Shown: in pieces, positions 12,030-64,000 of the stretch
Numbering within the stretch: position 1 is the first letter of the stretch
How the letters are laid out: each line of letters starts with the position of its first letter
Source: an uncultured virus (IMG/VR IMGVR_UViG_3300011475_000006)
Taxonomy: Duplodnaviria > Heunggongvirae > Uroviricota > Caudoviricetes
DNA length: 64,000 bases
Direction: 5' to 3' (one strand)
IMG/VR virus record: IMGVR_UViG_3300011475_000006
The notes under the pieces: model-generated
The model's input: only the letters and a program-made list of their open reading frames with translations
Databases searched by the model: none
What the model was told of the DNA's origin: nothing
Translations under genes and position numbers: made by a program

Positions 12030-12425
12030 ATGTCCGATCCTGTTTCTGGCACTACGGTAGCGGCTGGTGGTCTGATGGGGGCCAGCATGTTCGGCCTGGC
12101 AACCGGCATAGATTACGGTGTGGTGTTTGGCGCATTCGCTGGTGCGGTGTTCTACGTAGCTACTGCGGTTAATATCAGCCGCCTCAAGCTGGTGGGATAC
12201 TTCATCACCTCATTTATCTTCGGCGTTATCGGGGCTCCACTGCTTGGCTCTTACTTCTCCAGGTGGACGGGGTATAGCGACAGGCCACTAGATGCGCTGG
12301 GCGCGGTAATCGTAGCCGCTATTGCTATTAAGCTGCTGACGTTCGTCAACAGTCAGGATTTGGGTAGCCTGTTTGGAATTCTCTCACGTTTACGTGGTGG
12401 AGGGGCCAGCAATGGTAACAAGTGA
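12030..12425 (+). CDS. Putative holin
   Basis: 131 aa multi-TM protein; first gene of the lysis cassette. Confidence 0.75.
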   Translation: MSDPVSGTTVAAGGLMGASMFGLATGIDYGVVFGAFAGAVFYVATAVNISRLKLVGYFITSFIFGVIGAPLLGSYFSRWTGYSDRPLDALGAVIVAAIAIKLLTFVNSQDLGSLFGILSRLRGGGASNGNK

Positions 12426-12693
12426 CCCGAGTGCGATGGCAAATGCAACTATCTCTGCTGTTATCGTTATTACACTGATGTTCTACCAGCGCGGCGGGGC
12501 GAGACATCGCCCTCTGATATCGCTGATGGCTTATTTCATGGTCCTGGTATATGCCAGCGTCCCTTTCCGTTACCTGTTCGGCCTGTACCATGAATCCCAC
12601 TGGTTTGTGGTGCTGGTGAACGTCCTGATATGTGCTGCCGTTCTCTGGGCTCGGGGAAACGTGGCGCGCCTGGTTGATGCACTGAGGCACTAA
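12412..12693 (+). CDS. Phage holin-family membrane protein
   Basis: 93 aa, three hydrophobic segments; ARGNVARL C-terminus. Confidence 0.7.
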
Positions 12694-13319
12694 TGAACCA
12701 ATTACAATTTCAAAGGGCGGCTGGGTTAAGCGCCGAGTTAGCTGCGCGCTGGTTTCAGCCAATCAGTGATGCGATGAAAGAGTTCGTAATCATCAAGCCG
12801 GTAGATCAGGCCATGTTCGTTGCGCAGGCTGCGCATGAGTCGACAGGGTTAACCCGGCTGCAGGAAAACTTCAACTACAGCGTAGTGGGGTTGGCAAACT
12901 TCATTCGAGCAGGACGCATCACACAAGACCAGGCTAATACGCTTGGCCGTCGACCTGAAGAACGAGCATTACCGATTGAGCGTCAGCGTGCCATTGCTAA
13001 CCTGGTCTACAGCAAACGCTACGGTAACAATGCGCCTGGTGATGGATGGAAATACCGAGGGCGTGGACTCATCGGCATCACGTTCCTGGATAACTATCGT
13101 GACTGCGGCAATGCCCTGAAGGTCGATCTGGTTCAGCAGCCTGAGCTATTAGCCGAGCCCATTTATGCTGCCAGAAGTGCGGCATGGTTCTTCGCTACTA
13201 AGGGATGTCTGAACTATTCAGATAACCTGCTGCAGGTAACGAAGATTATCAACGGCGGCACAAACGGACTTGAAGATCGTCGCGCTCGCTTCGGTAAGGC
13301 AAAAACGGTACTGATGTAA
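12693..13319 (+). CDS. Glycoside hydrolase family 19 endolysin
   Basis: [27 protein letters not shown]. Confidence 0.9.
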
Positions 13320-13326
13320 GGTTGAT

Positions 13327-13602
13327 ATGGGATTAGAAACAATCGTCGGTATTGCTGCCCTGATAATGGCGGCTATCGCTGGTGCTTTTGGCATTGGCCA
13401 TTCACGCGGCACTAGCAAAGCGGAAGCGAAAGCCGAACAGCAGCGCACAGAAGAAAAGGCTGTAGCCACTGAAGCAGTAGCCGAACGCCGGGTAGAAGCA
13501 ACGAAAGAGGCCAGCAATGTACAGCAGAATGTTAACCGCATGCCTGATAACGATGTTGATCGCGAGCTGCGTGACACGTGGAAGCGTCCCGGTGGTGGTT
13601 GA
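13327..13602 (+). CDS. i-spanin-like (Rz equivalent)
   Basis: N-terminal TM then coiled coil, after the endolysin. Confidence 0.7.
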   Translation: MGLETIVGIAALIMAAIAGAFGIGHSRGTSKAEAKAEQQRTEEKAVATEAVAERRVEATKEASNVQQNVNRMPDNDVDRELRDTWKRPGGG

Positions 13603-13729
13603 TACCGCCTGTGACTGGGTAAAACCAATCTACCTGACTGAGCATGACATTGACGTTCTGGACCGCCAGACGAAGAAAGACATCCTGGCGCATAACAAAG
13701 CATGGAAAGCAAATTGCGGGAAAAATTGA
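13517..13729 (+). CDS. o-spanin-like lipoprotein (Rz1 equivalent)
   Basis: Lipobox LIASC; overlaps the i-spanin gene. Confidence 0.7.
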   Translation: MYSRMLTACLITMLIASCVTRGSVPVVVDTACDWVKPIYLTEHDIDVLDRQTKKDILAHNKAWKANCGKN

Positions 13730-13770
13730 GCCTCATCCCTGAGGTTCGGACACAGTCTCTCCTCTGGACT
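13721..13770 (-). ncRNA. Candidate sRNA module A1 (GGA-loop hairpin)
   Basis: TGc-TACGGT -10; CCTC-AGGGAT-GAGG hairpin plus U tract; homolog at 63162-63208. Confidence 0.5.
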
Positions 13771-13974
13771 TTAACCGTAGCAAATATTGAGGATTCCGTT
13801 ATACAAAAGGACAATTCTTTGGGGGGAGATAATTAAATGGCAGGGAGAAGCTTGAACAAATCAGGTTGGCTCATCCTTGAGCACACGGGTAGTCCTGAAC
13901 GACAACTTCACCTGACATAGCAAAGTCTTTGTAAGAGTCTAGAAAATAATGAGTATTTATCAAGCCGGGAAAGG

Positions 13975-14046
13975 AAAAAAGTCCCTTCCGAAATGAAATC
14001 CTGCAATTCGGAAGGGAGACCAAAGGGGTCATCATTACAAGGAGAA
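13975..14046 (-). ncRNA. Candidate sRNA module C1
   Basis: -10 TACATT; 5' CTCCTTGTAATG; terminator CCCTTCCGAA..CAGGAT..TTCGGAAGGG plus T tract. Confidence 0.55.
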
Positions 14047-14237
14047 TGTAAATGTAATCAATTTCTCAAAAGTAGAAAGGTGTATTAAATAAATAACTTA
14101 AAGTGAAAAAAATCTGCACTCTCCTAATGCCACATGGGTGTACGAACCTACACTTAGTGAAGAATTCAAACAAAGCTCACAACTTAAATTTATCCATCAA
14201 CTACATTTTACTGACACGATTGATTCGATATCTCTGT

Positions 14238-14346
14238 CATTCAGATGAATCCCCCTGCGCGGAGGGGCAACCAGTCACTGCTGGACGTAGTGTTGCGGGT
14301 TTGCGAAGTGATGCAAGTCCACCGGGAGGCACCCGGCATCTGAATG
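14238..14346 (+). ncRNA. Candidate multi-stem structured RNA module D1
   Basis: Closing stem CATTCAGATG/CATCTGAATG; CCCCT..AGGGG and CCGGG-AGGCA-CCCGG hairpins; strand not certain. Confidence 0.55.
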
Positions 14347-14444
14347 CTTGACTAAAGGAATAGGGTACACGTCGAACTAAGTGTGAAGTACTACCTAATT
14401 ACTGCTAGACCCAGCCAGTTCTGTCCGAACTGGCTTTTTTTTTG

Positions 14445-14540
14445 AAAAAAAGCCCTCGTGAGGAGGGCTATAGGAGTCTCAGTTTCGTTGCTCTTTTTAT
14501 TGATGTTTCCCCGGAGTTGGCATTCTCCGCATCAGAGTCA
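14445..14540 (-). ncRNA. Candidate RcsB-box sRNA module F1
   Basis: Box TAAGGAAATTCTTA (14590-14603), CGCTTACGCTTGTT, TGcCAAGCT; hairpin with AATGCCAA loop; intrinsic terminator. Confidence 0.6.
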
Positions 14541-15026
14541 CTAATAGCTTGGCACCCGCGTGCTTAACAACAAGCGTAAGCGTGGGAATTAAGAATTTCC
14601 TTATATAGATACAATGAGTTGGTGACTAGAGACAATGAAGCAGTAAAACGGGTTGACCGCAGCCTAAAGGCAATGCAGCAGTCATGATGCTGCCCCGAGT
14701 CGCGTAATGGCGAGCCTGTGAAGTGATGGGTGAGGGTTTATAGATCAAAACAAGCTCCGGTAAAGCAGCGCGAATGCCAGACGCGTACCGGTTATAAGCG
14801 GCAATGAAGCGACAGCACCTCAAGGGCATGAGCGTGGCCACTCCGGGTAGTAGCAGCCATTACAAAGCTCACCTGCTGGTGGGCTTGATAATGGTTATCC
14901 CCTAGAGGGGATAACTTCGTGATTATCCTCGAAAGCGGATATTGATTTTTATAGTGATTCACTTTGCCACTAAGAATGTAGCTTTTAAATGGCAGAAATG
15001 CCGCATTTTGTAAAAAAGGAATATAT

Positions 15027-16352
15027 ATGCCCGATGTAAACAACGACGCGACTGTTAACTTAAATGACTATATTTATGCACCAGATGCAGGGATTAATCC
15101 GGACACTGGTGAGGATCTCACAGAGAAACTGATCGCGTTACTTGATGAGAGTAACTCCTCGCAGAAAGGGATCTACTTCCCGGAGGGCGTTTATCTGTTC
15201 TCCGGTGATGTGATCATGAAATCCTATAACTCGCTGAAAGGTTCCGTCAGCGGTACGATATTTCGCGGTATTTCAGATAGCGCCGTAATGTTTGGTGACA
15301 GCACCTACGGTAACACCGTCACTGCATTAAGCATCGAAAACATTATTTTTGATAATGTCCGGGTGCACTTCTATGGACGTAAAACGAATATCAGCATTAG
15401 CCATAACGTGTTTATCAATACCGTAACCGAGACGTCCACGGCACAGCTGACCTGTTCCACGAACGCATATACCATTAATGGTAACGTATTTATGCGTGGC
15501 CGTGGCTTCGCAGGCGTGGGTTTAAGTACCTATGGGAATGCCGCCGGCCTGGTTATTGAACAGAACTTCTTGGGCTCAGTCAGCGATATCACTGTGGCTA
15601 CGCCATGGCTTGATGAAGAGACTCAGACAATGCTGGCGATCTTATTGGAACTACGTGAAGCTGGCGAGATGACATTCGACGATGCGCAGGGTGATTTCGT
15701 GGCGGGTTGGTACTCCACCAGTAATCTAAAGAAAGGCGTTTTCCGTAAGAACTTCTTCAAGGGGAGTGAGGCGATTTATCTCTTTAACCCGGCCACGGGT
15801 GAAGAAGATATTGGTCGTGACCACAACGTTTATATCAAGCAGTACGATCAGGTTGAAGTTGTGCAAAACTATTTCGGCGGCTGGCCTGGTGATGATCGTG
15901 CGTCTGGTCAGTTGAAATTCCGTAATGCTAAGGGCCTGGTTTTCGCGGGTAACTACCTGCAGGGCATTTCCTTCAATGCTCGTCCATATGACAACGTCGA
16001 TGATGCCTGGTTGATTATGCAGGACACCTACATTTTCAATAATTTTCTCAACGACGGGATGATCAGCTACTGGCAGAACTTTACTGACAGTGAAGATAAA
16101 GCCATTAGTGTCCAAAATTTCCTAGTGTTCTCTAACGAGTTTATCAATCGTGATGCTTCTGAAGCACTGATCACTTCGCCGTCTAACACCTTATCTGCCG
16201 AACAGTTCCTTTGCGCTGATAACCGTTTCTTTGAAACAGGCGAACTGGTGCCGACAAGCGGCGTGTTTGCAGAAACCGATGTAGAGGCACTACGAGCCAT
16301 GTTGCCTGATTATGCGTCTCAGTATCTGAGCATCGAACCCATTACGCCTTAA
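15027..16352 (+). CDS. Right-handed beta-helix (pectin-lyase-like) protein, possible polysaccharide depolymerase
   Basis: 441 aa; D.T..L..L....GIYFPEGVYL entry motif; repeated I/V..N.F Asn-ladder rungs; acidic; no obvious signal peptide. Confidence 0.65.
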   Translation: MPDVNNDATVNLNDYIYAPDAGINPDTGEDLTEKLIALLDESNSSQKGIYFPEGVYLFSGDVIMKSYNSLKGSVSGTIFRGISDSAVMFGDSTYGNTVTALSIENIIFDNVRVHFYGRKTNISISHNVFINTVTETSTAQLTCSTNAYTINGNVFMRGRGFAGVGLSTYGNAAGLVIEQNFLGSVSDITVATPWLDEETQTMLAILLELREAGEMTFDDAQGDFVAGWYSTSNLKKGVFRKNFFKGSEAIYLFNPATGEEDIGRDHNVYIKQYDQVEVVQNYFGGWPGDDRASGQLKFRNAKGLVFAGNYLQGISFNARPYDNVDDAWLIMQDTYIFNNFLNDGMISYWQNFTDSEDKAISVQNFLVFSNEFINRDASEALITSPSNTLSAEQFLCADNRFFETGELVPTSGVFAETDVEALRAMLPDYASQYLSIEPITP

Positions 16353-16475
16353 AATCGGCGTTCACCTGCGTTAAACATTACAGAAGCTCTTCACTGAGGG
16401 GCTTCGATAATGGATATCCCCCACAGCGGATAATCAACCAGATATCCCCGCAAGCGGATATATAAGAGGTGGAAA

Positions 16476-16712
16476 ATGAAAAAGGTCAGTGTCACCATCC
16501 AGCACTGGTGGGCTGCTCGAATACGCGTACCGTTTACGTTCCAGCGCAATGCACACCGATACCGACGGAATTGACGCAGCCGATGTTAGTACCGCTACCG
16601 CCAGCTCAATAACGTATTGCCAGGTAGTCTTGTGGATTAAGCCGCTGCTGGCTGTAATTGAAAAAGGCAACAACAACCTCATGGGGATTCGACAAATTGA
16701 GCTGGAAAGAAA
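16476..16712 (+). pseudogene. Relic Rz1-like o-spanin (frameshifted) fused to a truncated gene start
   Basis: LVGCSNTRTVYVPAQCTPIPTELTQPMLVPLPPAQ* (16505-16612) continues in another frame as ITYCQVVLWIKPLLAVIEKGN..IRQIE. Confidence 0.6.
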
Positions 16713-16722
16713 AAATGAGGAT

Positions 16723-17460
16723 GGCTCGTCCTTGAGCGCACGGGTATTTCTGAACGACGACTTTACCTGACATAGCAAAGCCTAAAATTAATTTTAGAAA
16801 ACAGTGGGTAATTATCAAGCGAAGCGAGGAAAAAACATCCCTTCTGAGACAAGATCCGTAAGTTCAGAAGGGAGACCAATCTGGTCAGCATTACAAGGAG
16901 ACTCGAACTATAAAGGAAACTGTATGGGAAACCAGACATATTAGAATAACTTTCTGATTTAAGGAGTTTTAATTTAATATTAATTAACCTGATAAATATT
17001 TAAGCAAGGCTTAAATTTTTTAATTTAGATACGAAAAATGTTGATTTTATACTAAATTAAAAATGCACATGCGAATCGACATTTCTGGCACTCAGTGGAT
17101 CCCCCTATGCGGAGGGGCAAGCAGTCGATGCTGGACTAACGTTTGCGGACTTGAAGACTGTGGCAAGTTCACCGGGAGGCACCCGGCACATGAGTGAAAG
17201 ATAAGGGAATATATAATTTGTCGACCAAGGTGTGAGTCGCTACTTACTTACTTACTGCTAGACCCAGCCAGTTCTGTCCGAGCTGGCTTTTTTTTGAAAA
17301 AATGCCCCCACGAGGGAGGCTACAGGAGTCTCAGTTTCACATGCTCTTTTTATCGATGTTTCCCTGGAGTTGGCATTCTCCACATCAGAGTCACGTTTAG
17401 CCTGGCACTTAACTGGGACTTAACAAGCGTAAGCGGTTTGATTGAGGAATTAATTAGATT
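16723..17460. repeat. Direct-repeat cassette copy 2 (modules B-C-D-E-F)
   Basis: Colinear homolog of 13868-14603. Confidence 0.85.
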
Positions 17461-17490
17461 CCAGCTCAACTGGTTTTGGCCAATAATTCG

Positions 17491-17586
17491 AAAAAAAAGC
17501 CCTCCGGTGGAGGGCAGCTGAAAAACGGCTAGTTTCGTTTAAGGTGCTATTTTCTCTGGTATTGGTAGGAGCCAGTTCAGAGAATC
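17491..17586 (-). ncRNA. Candidate RcsB-box sRNA module F3 (divergent body)
   Basis: Same promoter (box TAAGGTAATTCCTA 17635-17648; CGCTTACGCTTGTT), AACGAAACT core and GCCCTCC-ACC-GGAGGGC terminator. Confidence 0.55.
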
Positions 17587-17728
17587 TTAAGGATGGACGC
17601 CATGGCTGATTTAACAAGCGTAAGCGGTAAGTTATAGGAATTACCTTATGTTATCCCCTGTGGCGGATAATAACTACAATATCCCCACCCGAGGATATGA
17701 CTGTCCCCCAAGGCGTCTGAGGGTCTAT

Positions 17729-17925
17729 GGGTCCTTTCCGGCTATCCTACATGTTACGGGGCGGCGACCTCGCAGGTTCTCGCTATATATGAAAATTTTC
17801 AGGATTTTGTCTTTTCCGTTCTTCTTCTTTCTAAGTGTCTGTCTTTGCAGGGGATAACCCACCACAAGAAAGGAAGTGTTAAAGCCTGGTAGTAGTCATT
17901 TTACCCGGCATGGTTTCCTTACCCT
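17729..17925 (+). other. cos: Lambda-type cos site (cosQ, cosN, cosB)
   Basis: cosQ GGGTCCT 17729-17735; cohesive end GGGCGGCGACCT 17759-17770 as in lambda, same 23-nt spacing; R-like sites TTTCCGTTCT, AGAAAGGAA, GTTTCCTT. Confidence 0.93.
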
Positions 17926-17946
17926 GTTTTTCGCCTGGAGTACGTC

Positions 17947-18492
17947 ATGGAGGTCAATAAAAAACGCCTTTCAGAGATTTTTGGTGTCAGCATCCGCACG
18001 ATCCAGAACTGGCAGGATCAGGGAATGCCGGTTGCGCGCGGTTGCGGAAAAGGGAATGAAGTGCTTTATGACTCTGCCGCCGTAATCGAATGGTATTCCG
18101 CCCGTGACGCAGCGATAGAAAACGAAAAGCTACGCAAAGAGGTTGAACAGCTGAGAGTTGATTCAGAATCAGACCTTCTGCCTGGCACGATTGATTATGA
18201 GCGCCATCGGCTTACCCGAGCCCAGGCTGATGCTCAGGAACTAAAAAATGCAAAAGAGTCCGCTGAGGTCGTGGAGACCGCATTCTGCACGTTCGTGCTG
18301 TCGCGGATTGCCGGAGAAATTGCCAGTATCCTTGATGGAATACCTCTGTCGGTTCAGCGGCGCTTTCCGGAACTGGAAAATCGACATATTGATTTCCTCA
18401 AGAAGGACATCATAAAAGCCATGAACAAAGCAGCTGCGCTGGATGAAATGATACCGGGGTTGCTGAGTGAATATATCGAACAGTCAGGTTAA
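17947..18492 (+). CDS. nu1: Terminase small subunit (gpNu1)
   Basis: 181 aa; MEVNKK..IFG.SIRTIQNWQ closely matches lambda Nu1. Confidence 0.95.
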   Translation: MEVNKKRLSEIFGVSIRTIQNWQDQGMPVARGCGKGNEVLYDSAAVIEWYSARDAAIENEKLRKEVEQLRVDSESDLLPGTIDYERHRLTRAQADAQELKNAKESAEVVETAFCTFVLSRIAGEIASILDGIPLSVQRRFPELENRHIDFLKKDIIKAMNKAAALDEMIPGLLSEYIEQSG

Positions 18493-62425: not shown

Positions 62426-62839
62426 TTAATTGCCGTACAGCCGATTGAAAAGCGCATTTTTCATCGCATCAGAATCAATCGGATCCAGGTTTAACCAAGT
62501 CAATGTCTCACGATTCTTTTCTACATTGAAATCAGAAAACACACCATGGATATCACCGCTATCAGGTGAGTAAAGAACAGCAATATTCTGTTCTGGACAA
62601 CTATGAGGTTTACACCCTGACAGGGCAATATACTTTTTCCCTGCAACCGTAACTTCGGTTGATGGCGTGCTTGTGCCACCACTTTTCACCCATGCAGGAA
62701 GTTTGCTTTTACTAATAAGCTGGGAGTAGCTTTTAGAGGTACTTTTTGCACTGGCGAAGTCATAAAGATACTGCCCCTCGTCAGCAACAGCACTGAACGA
62801 AACCAAAGCCATAGCAGCGAGAATCACTTTACCTTTCAT
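62426..62839 (-). CDS. ivy: Ivy-family periplasmic lysozyme inhibitor
   Basis: Signal peptide; LPAWV..GGT.TP; CKPHSC loop (CKPHDC in canonical Ivy); IAVLYS. Confidence 0.85.
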   Translation of the reverse strand: MKGKVILAAMALVSFSAVADEGQYLYDFASAKSTSKSYSQLISKSKLPAWVKSGGTSTPSTEVTVAGKKYIALSGCKPHSCPEQNIAVLYSPDSGDIHGVFSDFNVEKNRETLTWLNLDPIDSDAMKNALFNRLYGN

Positions 62840-63014
62840 ATTATTCCTCAATCCATAAAGACACCTCAACTCTATACCTTTGCAGTCGCTATGTCAGCCC
62901 TATGGATAATCAGAGCATTTGAAGTTACTGCCCGGCCCAAATGATTAGGTAAGGATTATCTTAATCACTAGCGCTTATGCTTGTTGATTACTGCCTGACT
63001 GCCAGACTGTTCAG

Positions 63015-63111
63015 GACTCTGATGCGGAGAATGCCAACTCCAGGGAATCATCGATAAAAAGAGCAAGTGAAACTGAGACTCCTTTAGCTCTCCTTGCGAG
63101 GGCTTTTTTTT
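63015..63111 (+). ncRNA. Candidate RcsB-box sRNA module F4
   Basis: Box TAAGGATTATCTTA 62950-62963; TTGTTG-16-CAGACT; body highly similar to F1/F2; terminator with T tract. Confidence 0.6.
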
Positions 63112-63161
63112 GGAATCACCCAACCTATCAGGTTGCGCTTAAAATTTTTGATAATGCTAGT

Positions 63162-63208
63162 GTCCAAGAGCGAGATAGTGACAGAACCTTACGGATGAGG
63201 CTCTATTT
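63162..63208 (+). ncRNA. Candidate sRNA module A2
   Basis: CCTT-ACGGAT-GAGG hairpin; homolog of 13721-13770 at the same post-spanin position. Confidence 0.5.
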
Positions 63209-63664
63209 CAGACATTGCTCTTTGATATAGTCCTGCAAATATCCGACCTGCTTTGTCACTGTGACGATTCTTTCTCTGAGGGTGAAATAATCCCGTTCAG
63301 CGGAGTCAGTAAGTCTGGGGCAGGAAGCATCGCCCACGCCGCTGGCGCCGGCCGTTCCGTTCGCGGGACATCTGGCGTTGACGTGCAGCCCACACTTACC
63401 AGAGTTAACGCAACGCTGCAGATCTTCAAGCTGAGATTTCGCATCAGCTAATTCCTTCGTGTATTTGGCATCCAGTGCAGCGACATCTCGCTGACGGGTC
63501 TGCATGTCTTTGATGGTGGCGTTCGCCAGGCTGAGTTTCTCAGTGGCTTTATCGCGCTGGTCTTTATAAGCGATGGCGTTGTCGCGGTAGTGGTTAACCG
63601 CCCAGGCCATGAAACCCAGCAGACAGATAAAGACAGCGCAGATGATGGCTGTTAAACGGCTCAT
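63203..63664 (-). CDS. Rz: i-spanin Rz
   Basis: TM then [36 protein letters not shown]. Confidence 0.9.
63256..63444 (-). CDS. Rz1: o-spanin Rz1 lipoprotein
   Basis: Embedded in Rz; lipobox [25 protein letters not shown]. Confidence 0.85.
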
Positions 63665-64000
63665 TTCTGGCCCCACTCGCAAACTTCCCGCTCAATCTCA
63701 CGACGGGTGATCAGCCCCTTCCACTGTTTTCCACCGGCATACGTCCAACGCTGCAGTTCGTTGCATGCACCCGGAATATCACCGGCATTCAGTTTCTTCA
63801 GCAGCGTCGATCTGCTAAACGCTCCAGTTCCCACGTTGTAAGTGAAGGAGTAAAGCGCAGCCTGGGTAGGCTTAGGAATATTAACCTTAATTAGCGGGTC
63901 GATAGCATTTGCCACCTTACGCAGATCTGATTCCAGCAAGGCGTCACATTCCTTATCGGTGTATCGGTGACCGCGGCGAACGTCTGCACCTGTGTGACCG
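63661..64000 (-). CDS. GH24 lysozyme endolysin (5' part outside window)
   Basis: [33 protein letters not shown]. Confidence 0.9.

Follow-up and report, generated by a model that had tools for sequence, protein, structure and literature searches.

Do the four short hairpins with an A-N-GGA-N hexaloop in this phage DNA represent one class of CsrA-binding RNA, or has a shared motif brought together different elements? The window, which here means the whole 64,000-nt stretch analysed (IMG/VR IMGVR_UViG_3300011475_000006), holds two prophages, and the hairpins had been assigned to a module A (A1, CCUC-AGGGAU-GAGG, 13731-13744, minus strand; A2 in prophage 2, CCUU-ACGGAU-GAGG, 63187-63200, plus strand) and a module B (B1, GCUC-AAGGAU-GAGC, 13869-13882, and B2, GCUC-AAGGAC-GAGC, 16724-16737, both minus strand). 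On re-reading of the window these sequences and positions are correct. All four hairpins are antisense to the late genes, as the initial annotation stated, because prophage 2 is inverted, and the second GGA reported upstream in A1 and B1 is present.

The number of such hairpins in the window is at chance level. There are 13 ANGGAN hexaloops on 4-bp stems, against 8.9±2.9 expected from 100 first-order Markov surrogates (8 of which reach 13), and five with Watson-Crick pairs only, against 2.1±1.4 in the surrogates. B1 and B2 are two copies within one 2.85-kb tandem duplication. The features that do exceed chance, and for module B only, are its conservation among relatives and the RNA data. The earlier treatment of A and B as one class of module is not supported, and they are two unrelated elements. 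We propose that the four hairpins belong to two conserved non-coding elements of temperate phages of Enterobacter and its relatives, both located in the interval that separates lysis from terminase genes. This explanation, taken together with our preferred mechanism, in which host CsrA binds the 3' hairpin of the module B RNA, is held tentatively and falls somewhat short of an even chance.

We have high confidence that module B is a small-RNA gene on the minus strand. Copy 1 (13863..13928, approximately 66 nt) is delimited by an adapter junction at its 5' end, by contig ends and by a covariance model (R1), and copy 2 (16718..16783, within the tandem duplication) by the model; the scores are 90.8 bits on 13861-13928 and 94.9 bits on 16716-16783. 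The promoter of copy 1 (13936..13963, minus strand) comprises a -35 element TTGATA (13963-13958), a 16-nt spacer and a -10 element TAGACT (13941-13936), and sits 7 nt upstream of the mapped 5' end at 13928. That of copy 2 (16791..16818, minus strand; TTGATA 16818-16813, 16 nt, TAAAAT 16796-16791) was read from the sequence and is one row in the alignment of small-RNA variants. The form TTGNNA-16-TANNNT, of sigma70 type, is kept in all 64 unique variants (from 120 instances), with a spacer that varies in sequence. The -10 element occurs in seven spellings, all of which keep the T, the A and the last T. Directly upstream of it (-13) is a C in 64/64 variants. A C at this position has been linked to RpoS, and a contribution of RpoS to this promoter is therefore conceivable. 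The TGn extended -10-like elements proposed upstream of each hairpin find no support: a two-hexamer scan returned the copy 1 site, without TG, as the single promoter-like site of 13600-14650, and none in 62900-63300. The mapped 5' end lies upstream of TGCTATGTC, probably the TGn element that was meant.

The RNA evidence consists of assembled contigs from a relative, obtained in two studies, in which contig depth is a rough measure; parts of the window without cover in the RNA runs were left out of the evidence. In a small-RNA library (X14), k-mer depths were 8800 on 13863-13922, 4480 on 13893-13928 and 4300 on 13863-13892, and these short contigs reach approximately 50-90 times the depth of the flanking 350-nt contig on 13550-13891 (depth 96). 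No contig of this library lies right of 13950. The contig ending at 13928 continues directly into GATCGTCGGACTGTAGAACTCTGA, which, according to PMC8090853, is the read-2 adapter in libraries with small-RNA-type adapters (the library kit is thus deduced from the adapter itself). As GATCGTCGGACTGTAGAACTCTGA follows the reverse complement of the insert 5' end, the junction places a minus-strand 5' end at 13928. A Nanopore run (X7) has a contig on 13867-13928 (depth 688) that likewise stops at 13928, with flanking contigs at 18-22, and also one across this position (13905-13951, depth 853). Three further contigs of this run end at 13980 in an A run followed by GA. GA after an A run is the start of the complement of the Nanopore RT primer, of which a longer form, GAAGATAGAG, is seen at 14096. 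Such ends would point either to plus-sense RNAs ending here or to primer annealing within the A6 run. At the other end, the X14 contigs begin at 13862/13863. No T run was found within 2 nt behind the 3' hairpin of copy 1 and there is no canonical terminator, so that the 3' end near 13863 is placed tentatively, by contig ends only. The prediction of small RNAs of roughly 50 nt stands for module B with respect to strand and to the presence of its own promoter; the length is approximately 66 nt.

The small RNA has a 5' hairpin of 9 bp, a single-stranded linker of 17-18 nt and then the 3' hairpin, which in B1 extends to seven pairs with one bulge and presents a CsrA-type motif in its loop. In the alignment, 96.3% of cells are paired across 15 pairs, one of which varies at both of its positions (GC in 41 variants, AU in 15, GU in 8, unpaired in none). 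Of the G·U pairs, two are invariant and a further two are seen in part of the variants; every one of these G·U pairs would be a mismatch on the plus strand. The folds are not more stable than those of shuffled sequences (z of -0.28 for copy 1 and -1.15 for copy 2). Conservation of the GGA in larger homolog sets, a check set beforehand, was run and holds for module B. The loop is AAGGAN in 64/64 unique variants, and the GGA is kept in 90 of 93 Klebsiella-type copies (both sets gathered without reference to the loop) and in 74 of the 77 family members among 119 metagenome matches, which were found with a pattern that left the loop free. Position 2 of the 3' hexaloop can be A, G or U and position 6 any of the four bases. 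The promoter layout is also kept in a distant copy from another genus (G095), in which the loop reads AGGGAU. Three diverged subfamilies from at least three genera retain A-N-GGA-N with changes at N. The second GGA, in the linker, is present in 35/64 variants and is deleted in G095 and in the Klebsiella-type copies. The linker (GUCGUUCAG…UACCCGUG) and its flank UACCCGUG are as conserved as the loop. The RNA core has 92% mean column identity, far above that of the promoter spacer and flanks.

Most relatives of the small RNA are close (85-92% column identity). It occurs in 12 of the 81 species-representative genomes of the genus of the nearest genome, and also in Klebsiella phages and a few E. 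coli. When 13840-14060 served as the query, two of 5426 E. coli genomes and three phage records matched it, over no more than query bases 132-219 (approximately 13971-14058), which hold a terminator-like hairpin upstream of the gene, and the DNA of 13700-14020 was matched in 3 of 401 family genomes. Model R1 matched 0 of 151 order-level genomes. A scan of 13400-18000 against Rfam 15 with E up to 5 gave, apart from one spurious microRNA match, only two matches to STnc100 (RF02076; 14241-14343 and 17095-17189, plus strand), which lie apart from modules A and B. The small-RNA sequence is absent from the literature searched, and the RNA is apparently undescribed so far. In every context examined the gene is convergent with late genes. 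In relatives it adjoins the stop codon of a foreign Rz-like spanin gene, of which the window keeps a 3' fragment (16489..16770, plus strand) that has lost its own stop codon (a full-length relative of 178 aa matches phrog_214, E 2e-55). A Klebsiella phage carries it between lysozyme and terminase genes. We rejected a coding reading of module B: neither a minus-strand ORF (MSGK…) nor a plus-strand ORF of 27 aa is conserved, and the most frequent variant has a stop inside the former, which in copy 1 runs for just 15 codons.

Module A, by contrast with its assignment to the same class, probably acts on the sense strand. We suggest that its sequence is complementary to the 5' hairpin of a late-sense element, in which this hairpin is followed by a CU-rich stretch and then by an intrinsic terminator. 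A plus-strand terminator ends this element in 53 of 87 unique relatives (52 of the 53 with at least one G·U pair), and 15 of the 87 have the junction by which it is replaced in the window. Lacking from both window copies is a GC-rich stem with a T run on the late strand. The copy with A1 (13724..13786, plus strand) is truncated, retaining the hairpin at 13731-13744 and the CU-rich UCUCUCCUCU, with the terminator of its relatives replaced; the diverged copy in prophage 2 (63146..63207, minus strand) contains A2 and is without terminator. Several last lysis genes that are not homologous to one another have the element behind their stop codon. In prophage 1 the last lysis gene is that for the o-spanin (13517..13729, plus strand; PHROG Rz-like spanin phrog_1275, E 7.6e-34), and in prophage 2 an ORF holding Rz, the i-spanin (63203..63682, minus strand; Pfam Phage_lysis, E 2.1e-42), for which a start at the ATG near 63660 is more likely, as judged by eye, and in which Rz1 is embedded (63256-63444). 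Module A had been described as overlapping the last spanin stop. It abuts the stop instead: with the TGA of the o-spanin at 13727-29 and the TAG of Rz at 63203-05, one to two bases separate stop and hairpin in both prophages. Variation in the loop is almost confined to N (82/85 unique hairpins retain TCC), which fits recognition on either strand. A coding reading was rejected here too. A shared '…EPHP*' frame looked like synonymous variation in both prophages, and we discarded it because the spanin frames proper end one to two bases before the hairpin and the element follows unrelated genes.

For module B, we consider binding of its RNA to CsrA in cells to be possible, a little less probable than its absence, on the basis of the hairpin sequence. 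The B1, B2 and A1 hairpins match the CsrA/RsmE consensus (A/U)CANGGANG(U/A) at 10/10 positions, and in the selection experiments the rule is a GGA in a hairpin loop (consensus and SELEX rule as given in PMC6849547 and PMC4347634). The RNA is transcribed, probably during lysogeny, from a conserved sigma70-type promoter on the strand antisense to the late genes, and its 3' hairpin would present the A-N-GGA-N loop to host CsrA. An abundant phage RNA might then draw CsrA off host messages, or gain stability from CsrA. Sponging as the main role of the RNA is doubtful. Against it stands the single conserved GGA per small RNA; known CsrA sponges carry many GGA sites. Matches to a palindromic box of the UvrY/GacA type with no more than two mismatches number six in the window, where 5.8 are expected; the closest one (14053-14070) has two mismatches and no counterpart beside copy 2.

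The strongest alternative is that the module B RNA acts by base pairing, with its linker or loops pairing host or phage messages and the GGA loop serving as a seed or as a mimic of a ribosome-binding site rather than as a CsrA site. We regard this as unlikely, although it accounts for a feature that CsrA capture leaves aside. The linker and UACCCGUG are invariant or nearly so across the 64 variants, which a pure decoy would not need and which therefore points to base pairing; UACCCGUG is also kept in G095 and in the Klebsiella-type copies, although the metagenome and Klebsiella-type search patterns themselves required it. There are well-known prophage small RNAs with a pairing mode of action, and STnc100 and the Pas RNAs lie in a like region (10.64898/2026.05.13.724894). 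The Enterobacter copies, however, are without the U-tailed terminator typical of Hfq-dependent RNAs, and the pattern of loop variation, with N free and the A and GGA fixed, is a better match to recognition by a protein than to a contiguous seed. Nor did targets within the window give a signal: in a duplex scan of nt 10-46 against its 246 translation-start regions the best energy was -32.1, and the mean best of 30 shuffled cores was -32.2. Action in cis is less probable still. Here the convergent promoter and its transcript, running from 13928 into the 3' end of the lysis genes, would guard against leaky lysis-gene expression or read-through as an antisense RNA, or direct processing of the late transcript by pairing. 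The convergent arrangement in every context agrees with this, and so does the location of the gene, which in two Enterobacter contexts abuts the last lysis gene's stop or is close to it. The 350-nt contig of X14, which runs from 13891 to 13550 through both spanin genes, would at depth 96 fit approximately 1% read-through. However, a cis antisense role puts no constraint on the RNA's own sequence, yet its core is far better conserved than spacer and flanks; moreover, the abundant form ends before the spanin gene, and the Klebsiella copies do not adjoin a lysis gene.

Such read-through RNA could also give module A a part to play on the antisense strand, either as a further CsrA site on it or as its terminator, which we consider improbable. 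A and B would then, to that extent, form a single system, as first proposed. In favor are the full consensus match of A1, the restriction of loop variation largely to N, and the 12 bases CUCAGGGAUGAG that are identical in A1 and in the small-RNA hairpin of the Klebsiella type. Furthermore, A1 followed by CUCAAUUUUU was flagged as terminator-like on the minus strand, and the prophage-2 variant pairs only on the antisense strand (U·G, against C·A on the sense strand). In most relatives, however, a sense-strand terminator with G·U pairs lies directly downstream, and the U run behind A1 arises only from the last codons of this o-spanin. Many phages carry module A without module B, and 0/93 Klebsiella-type loci have module A within 3.5 kb. 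In X14 and X7 the sole contigs over module A are long ones of low depth, with no separate high-depth contigs, and no promoter for an antisense RNA over it was found in 13600-14650 or 62900-63300. The suggestion that module A is an independent antisense RNA gives way, in most relatives, to a part of a late-sense terminator element. There is, lastly, the reading in which nothing is functional, the hairpins having arisen by chance and the conservation reflecting recent common descent of mobile DNA. The motif count, the ordinary stability of the folds and the closeness of most relatives speak for it. It was already disfavored and is very improbable, given promoter hexamers kept while the spacer varies, a defined 5' end with very high contig depth in two RNA studies, and the persistence of A-N-GGA-N across diverged subfamilies.

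Other candidates were tried and set aside. A kissing loop between the small-RNA hairpin and the sense hairpin of module A was suggested by near complementarity, but the N positions mismatch (A opposite C), as judged in phages holding both elements, and the Klebsiella-type loci without a nearby module A also oppose it. A type I toxin-antitoxin system came into view when the G095 copy was seen to overlap the end of a 36-aa hydrophobic ORF, and was rejected since the convergent neighbor encodes a spanin in Enterobacter and, in a Klebsiella phage, a soluble protein of 66 aa. The RNA svsR (PMC12803456) is placed at the 3' end of cI and is unrelated to the module B RNA. In phage ENT1, module A gave a weak hit to STnc100 that scored 24 bits, less than the gathering score, and involved the A-rich leader and the terminator only.

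Enterobacter and Klebsiella are major hospital pathogens, and prophage DNA makes up much of the difference among their strains. A strongly expressed prophage small RNA may represent a new route by which prophages reprogram their hosts. We think it unlikely that temperate phages of these genera carry a minimal CsrA decoy, an abundant RNA of approximately 66 nt with one optimal hairpin. If they do, lysogens would produce the decoy, perhaps at higher levels in stationary phase and in this prophage from two copies, and it would shift carbon storage, motility, biofilm formation and virulence under CsrA control. This would be lysogenic conversion by capture of a global RNA-binding protein, rather than by a protein or a base-pairing RNA. 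We know of no earlier phage-borne CsrA antagonist, and among the matches listed in a literature search on phage-encoded CsrA sponges none was relevant by title and start of the abstract; if bound by CsrA, the small RNA would be the first one known. The look-alike hairpins of modules A and B, belonging to different elements, illustrate how a shared motif alone can mislead.

Among known systems, CsrB, CsrC and RsmX/Y/Z resemble the module B RNA in being non-coding and abundant, with GGA in a short hairpin loop that matches the consensus. CsrB and CsrC have many CsrA sites each. Unlike these RNAs, that of module B has one conserved site (with the second in 35/64 variants), is only about 66 nt long, is carried by phages, and has neither an Rfam match (E up to 5) nor a convincing UvrY/GacA-type box. 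As in SELEX ligands and the hairpin at the hcnA ribosome-binding site, C-G and U-A pairs close its A-N-GGA-N loop, and the hairpin fits the core CARGGAUG of RUACARGGAUGU (PMC6849547 and PMC4347634). Single CsrA/RsmE hairpins of that kind occur in CsrA-repressed messages or selected ligands, whereas the one in module B forms the 3' part of an independent RNA that has no ORF behind it. Module B shares its niche in lambdoid prophages with STnc100/PasD, AgvB and AsxR, and STnc100 lies approximately 310 nt away in the same duplicated module; module B is, however, on the strand opposite to STnc100, shorter, without sequence or model similarity, and its Enterobacter copies are without a canonical terminator. 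Lambda OOP and anti-Q RNA are phage antisense RNAs convergent with the 3' end of a gene. The module B RNA is likewise short, with a constitutive promoter pointing into the end of a phage operon, but its abundant form ends before the coding region and its conservation goes beyond antisense needs. The likeness of module A is instead to intrinsic terminators and RNAs derived from 3' UTRs, with which it shares a hairpin after the stop codon, a single-stranded CU-rich stretch and, in 53 of the 87 relatives though in neither window copy, a GC-rich stem and T run.

The small-RNA genes of module B, present as two minus-strand copies in the window (copy 1, 13863-13928; copy 2, 16718-16783), constitute a genuine and new family of prophage small RNAs whose hairpin is of the CsrA type. 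Neither module B nor the second hairpin-bearing element, module A, matches an Rfam family, and fragments of both module B subfamilies were found in no paper's main text. Literature searches on Enterobacter prophage sRNAs and CsrA and on phage-encoded CsrA sponges turned up nothing relevant-looking except svsR, an unrelated RNA at the cI 3' end.

The window contains two lambdoid prophages arranged tail to tail, a plus-strand one (prophage 1, to about 39726) and a minus-strand one (prophage 2, from 39729), and its closest sequences are Enterobacter phages and genomes. Prophage 1 encodes, on the plus strand, two holins (12030-12693), a GH19-type endolysin (12693-13319), an i-spanin (13327-13602), an overlapping o-spanin (13517-13729; TGA stop 13727-29) and Nu1 (from 17947). 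Prophage 2 encodes Rz with an embedded Rz1 on the minus strand (TAG stop 63203-05). Within the 4.2 kb that separate the spanins from Nu1 in prophage 1, some 730 bp are tandemly duplicated (13854-14582 matches 16709-17435; identity 75-91%, spacing 2.85 kb). The two units bracket a gene resembling pectate lyase (15027-16352, Pfam PF12708) together with a 3' fragment of a foreign spanin gene (16489-16770), and each unit has one plus-strand Rfam match to STnc100, a known prophage small RNA (14241-14343, 61 bits; 17095-17189, 54 bits), followed by a plus-strand terminator (14413-14435 for the first). This arrangement resembles the scar left when a moron inserts via recombination between small-RNA modules. 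In prophage 2, an Ivy-family gene (inhibitor of vertebrate lysozyme; 62426-62869, minus strand; Pfam PF08816, E 2.8e-19) is a moron between the lysis and packaging genes. A third conserved block occurs in both prophages, always antisense to the late genes (14445-14582 and 17297-17435, minus strand; 62972-63110, plus strand). It ends in an intrinsic terminator (14469-14451, minus strand; 63086-63104, plus strand), has no Rfam match, and looks like another small-RNA gene.

The initial annotation described four hairpins with CsrA-consensus ANGGA hexaloops, A1 (13731-13744) and A2 (63187-63200) of module A and B1 (13869-13882) and B2 (16724-16737) of module B, and read all as tiny antisense RNAs. 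All four are there with the sequences as written, each antisense to late genes, and B1 and B2 are copies from a single duplication. As a motif count they are unremarkable: the window has 13 ANGGAN hexaloops on 4-bp stems (8.9±2.9 in 100 Markov surrogates), 5 such hairpins with Watson-Crick pairs only (2.1±1.4, 100 Markov surrogates) and 12 matches to (A/U)CANGGANG(U/A) (6.5±2.3, 60 surrogates).

A consensus scan of 13600-14650 identified only one promoter-like site, on the minus strand (TTGATA at 13963, a 16-nt spacer and TAGACT at 13936). Module B relatives were collected by flanking patterns without the hairpin (120 instances, 64 unique sequences), and TTGNNA, the 16-nt spacer and TANNNT are present in all 64. 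The -35 box has four spellings and the -10 box seven, with the critical bases kept throughout; the C immediately 5' of the -10 is invariant, and the spacer and the bases between -10 and start are variable. Upstream, 13975-14057 includes an 11-bp stem with a 14-nt loop and then a six-U run on the minus strand, which resembles a terminator for a minus-strand transcript coming from upstream, placed immediately ahead of the small-RNA promoter. Past this stem-loop, the plus strand has AAGGAG and then two tandem ATG-TAA mini-ORFs (about 14039-14057); the stem-loop is kept in Enterobacter phage ENT1, immediately after Rz.

Public RNA runs, four of which were aligned, cover the window only in short parts, as assembled contigs with a single depth figure each. 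In X14, a small-RNA library of a relative ('organism B'; 3 letters differ in 60), short contigs cover 13863-13922 (depth 8800), 13893-13928 (4480) and 13863-13892 (4300); a 350-nt contig at 13550-13891 has depth 96, and no contig lies to the right beyond 13950. One of these short contigs, which ends at 13928, runs on into GATCGTCGGACTGTAGAACTCTGA, described in PMC8090853 as the read-2 adapter in libraries built with small-RNA-type adapters (the X14 kit is inferred). Since this adapter follows the reverse complement of the insert 5' end, the RNA must come from the minus strand and start at 13928, 7 nt downstream of the -10. A Nanopore run on 'organism B' from a separate study, X7, also has a contig that stops at 13928 (13867-13928, depth 688; flanks 18-22), and contigs cross this position at 13905-13951 (depth 853). 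Three X7 contigs end at 13980 in an A run and then GA, with which the Nanopore RT primer complement begins (sequence in 10.1101/2021.09.22.461331), and a longer primer complement, GAAGATAGAG, occurs at 14096. These junctions indicate plus-sense 3' ends or internal priming on a genomic A6 run, and there may be a plus-strand RNA complementary to the module B RNA.

The fold of the module B RNA (about 66 nt) comprises a 5' hairpin of 9 bp, a 17-18-nt linker and a 3' hairpin with 6-7 pairs and one bulge. Across the 64 sequences, 96.3% of cells are paired, and one pair varies on both sides (GC 41, AU 15, GU 8, unpaired 0). Two G·U pairs are invariant and two more occur in some variants; on the plus strand, each of these would become C·A. 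Folding energies are ordinary (z -0.28 and -1.15), thus the structure is supported by conservation rather than thermodynamics. The minus-strand ORF over module B is broken in the commonest variant.

Three module B loop sets were collected without reference to the loop. The loop is AAGGAN in 64/64 unique variants (AAGGAC 34, AAGGAU 27, AAGGAG 2, AAGGAA 1). A metagenome scan with a free loop gave 119 matches, comprising 77 family members (70 by regular expression, 7 by eye) and 42 unrelated GC-rich sequences, and identified a third, Klebsiella-type subfamily. The initial annotation had named loss of GGA in a larger homolog alignment as a result that would refute its reading. This did not occur: GGA is kept in all 64 variants, in 74/77 metagenome members (exceptions AUGAAU x2, AUGGCU x1) and in 90/93 Klebsiella-type copies (AGGGAU 56, AUGGAU 33, one 5-nt loop AGGAU; exceptions AUGAAU x2, AGGGGU x1). 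Together, the sets define position 2 as A, G or U and position 6 as any base, with A1, G3, G4 and A5 fixed. All 10 of 10 hairpin positions agree with the structure-based CsrA/RsmE consensus (A/U)CANGGANG(U/A), and GGA lies within a hairpin loop, in line with the SELEX rule (both as given in PMC6849547 and PMC4347634). That the module B RNA binds CsrA is a good hypothesis, as yet unproven. Counting against a simple sponge are the single conserved GGA (a second occurs in 35/64 variants), the lack of an Rfam match and of a convincing UvrY-type box, and a linker and flank, UACCCGUG, conserved to the same degree as the loop, which suggests base pairing or recognition over a larger surface. A scan for module B targets within the window found none.

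Module A is of a different kind and is most likely a sense-strand element. Its hairpins abut the spanin stop codons without the overlap originally described. Relatives collected by a downstream flank pattern (120 instances, 87 unique sequences) show an element starting at the stop codons of various last lysis genes that are unrelated to one another (in phage ENT1, about 180 nt 3' of the Rz stop). The hairpin comes first, then a CU-rich stretch (UCUCUCCUCU), then a part that varies between relatives. This part is a plus-strand stem and then a T run in 53/87, with G·U pairs possible only on the late strand in 52 of these 53 terminator stems; 15/87 have the terminator-less junction of the window and 19 other forms. 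One hairpin pair is altered on both sides (CCTC/GAGG to GCTC/GAGC) in 3 unique sequences, and TCC is retained in 82/85 unique hairpins (two sequences lack the hairpin). Three features speak for a role on the antisense strand: a loop that varies almost solely at N, the prophage-2 variant, which pairs on that strand only, and the resemblance of A1 and the following CUCAAUUUUU to a minus-strand terminator. Such a role is nonetheless improbable. Neither prophage has a promoter-like site for an antisense RNA, and in X14 and X7, module A is covered by long low-depth contigs only. Twelve antisense bases of A1 (13733-13744, minus strand), CUCAGGGAUGAG, recur unchanged in the 3' hairpin of Klebsiella-type small RNAs (L516, L609 and other loci); the flanks are weakly similar, and the two never occur together in 93 loci examined. 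At the ENT1 locus (L006, 2418-2592), the module A sense element and terminator occupy the position that STnc100 has in the window, preceded by the same A-rich leader and a TATACA -10-like box. Given this placement, module A is perhaps its own plus-strand small-RNA cassette in some phages.

R1, a covariance model of the module B RNA, had just two hits in the window, copy 2 (94.9 bits) and copy 1 (90.8 bits), with none in prophage 2. It matched 14 places in 12/81 genomes of the genus of the nearest genome, had two weak matches across the family (151 genera), and none across the order (151 sampled genomes). Scanning named genomes returned 11 loci, 10 of them in Enterobacter species and one in a Buttiauxella MAG. 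The Klebsiella-type subfamily occurs in Klebsiella phages and 5/5426 E. coli genomes; in Klebsiella phage ST13-OXA48phi12.2 the gene is again found, antisense to late genes, in the interval from the lysis genes to terminase. In one Enterobacter context it directly adjoins the stop of the gene for a 178-aa Rz-like spanin, of which the window ORF at 16489-16770 is a 3' fragment, imported with copy 2. A distant copy in another genus (G095) keeps the promoter layout, with the loop AGGGAU and a linker 8 nt shorter. At this locus (L489; 1395-1505, plus strand, and 1562-1501, minus strand) the homologue overlaps the 3' end of a strongly hydrophobic 36-aa ORF without a match in Pfam or PHROG, a layout like that of a type I toxin-antitoxin pair.
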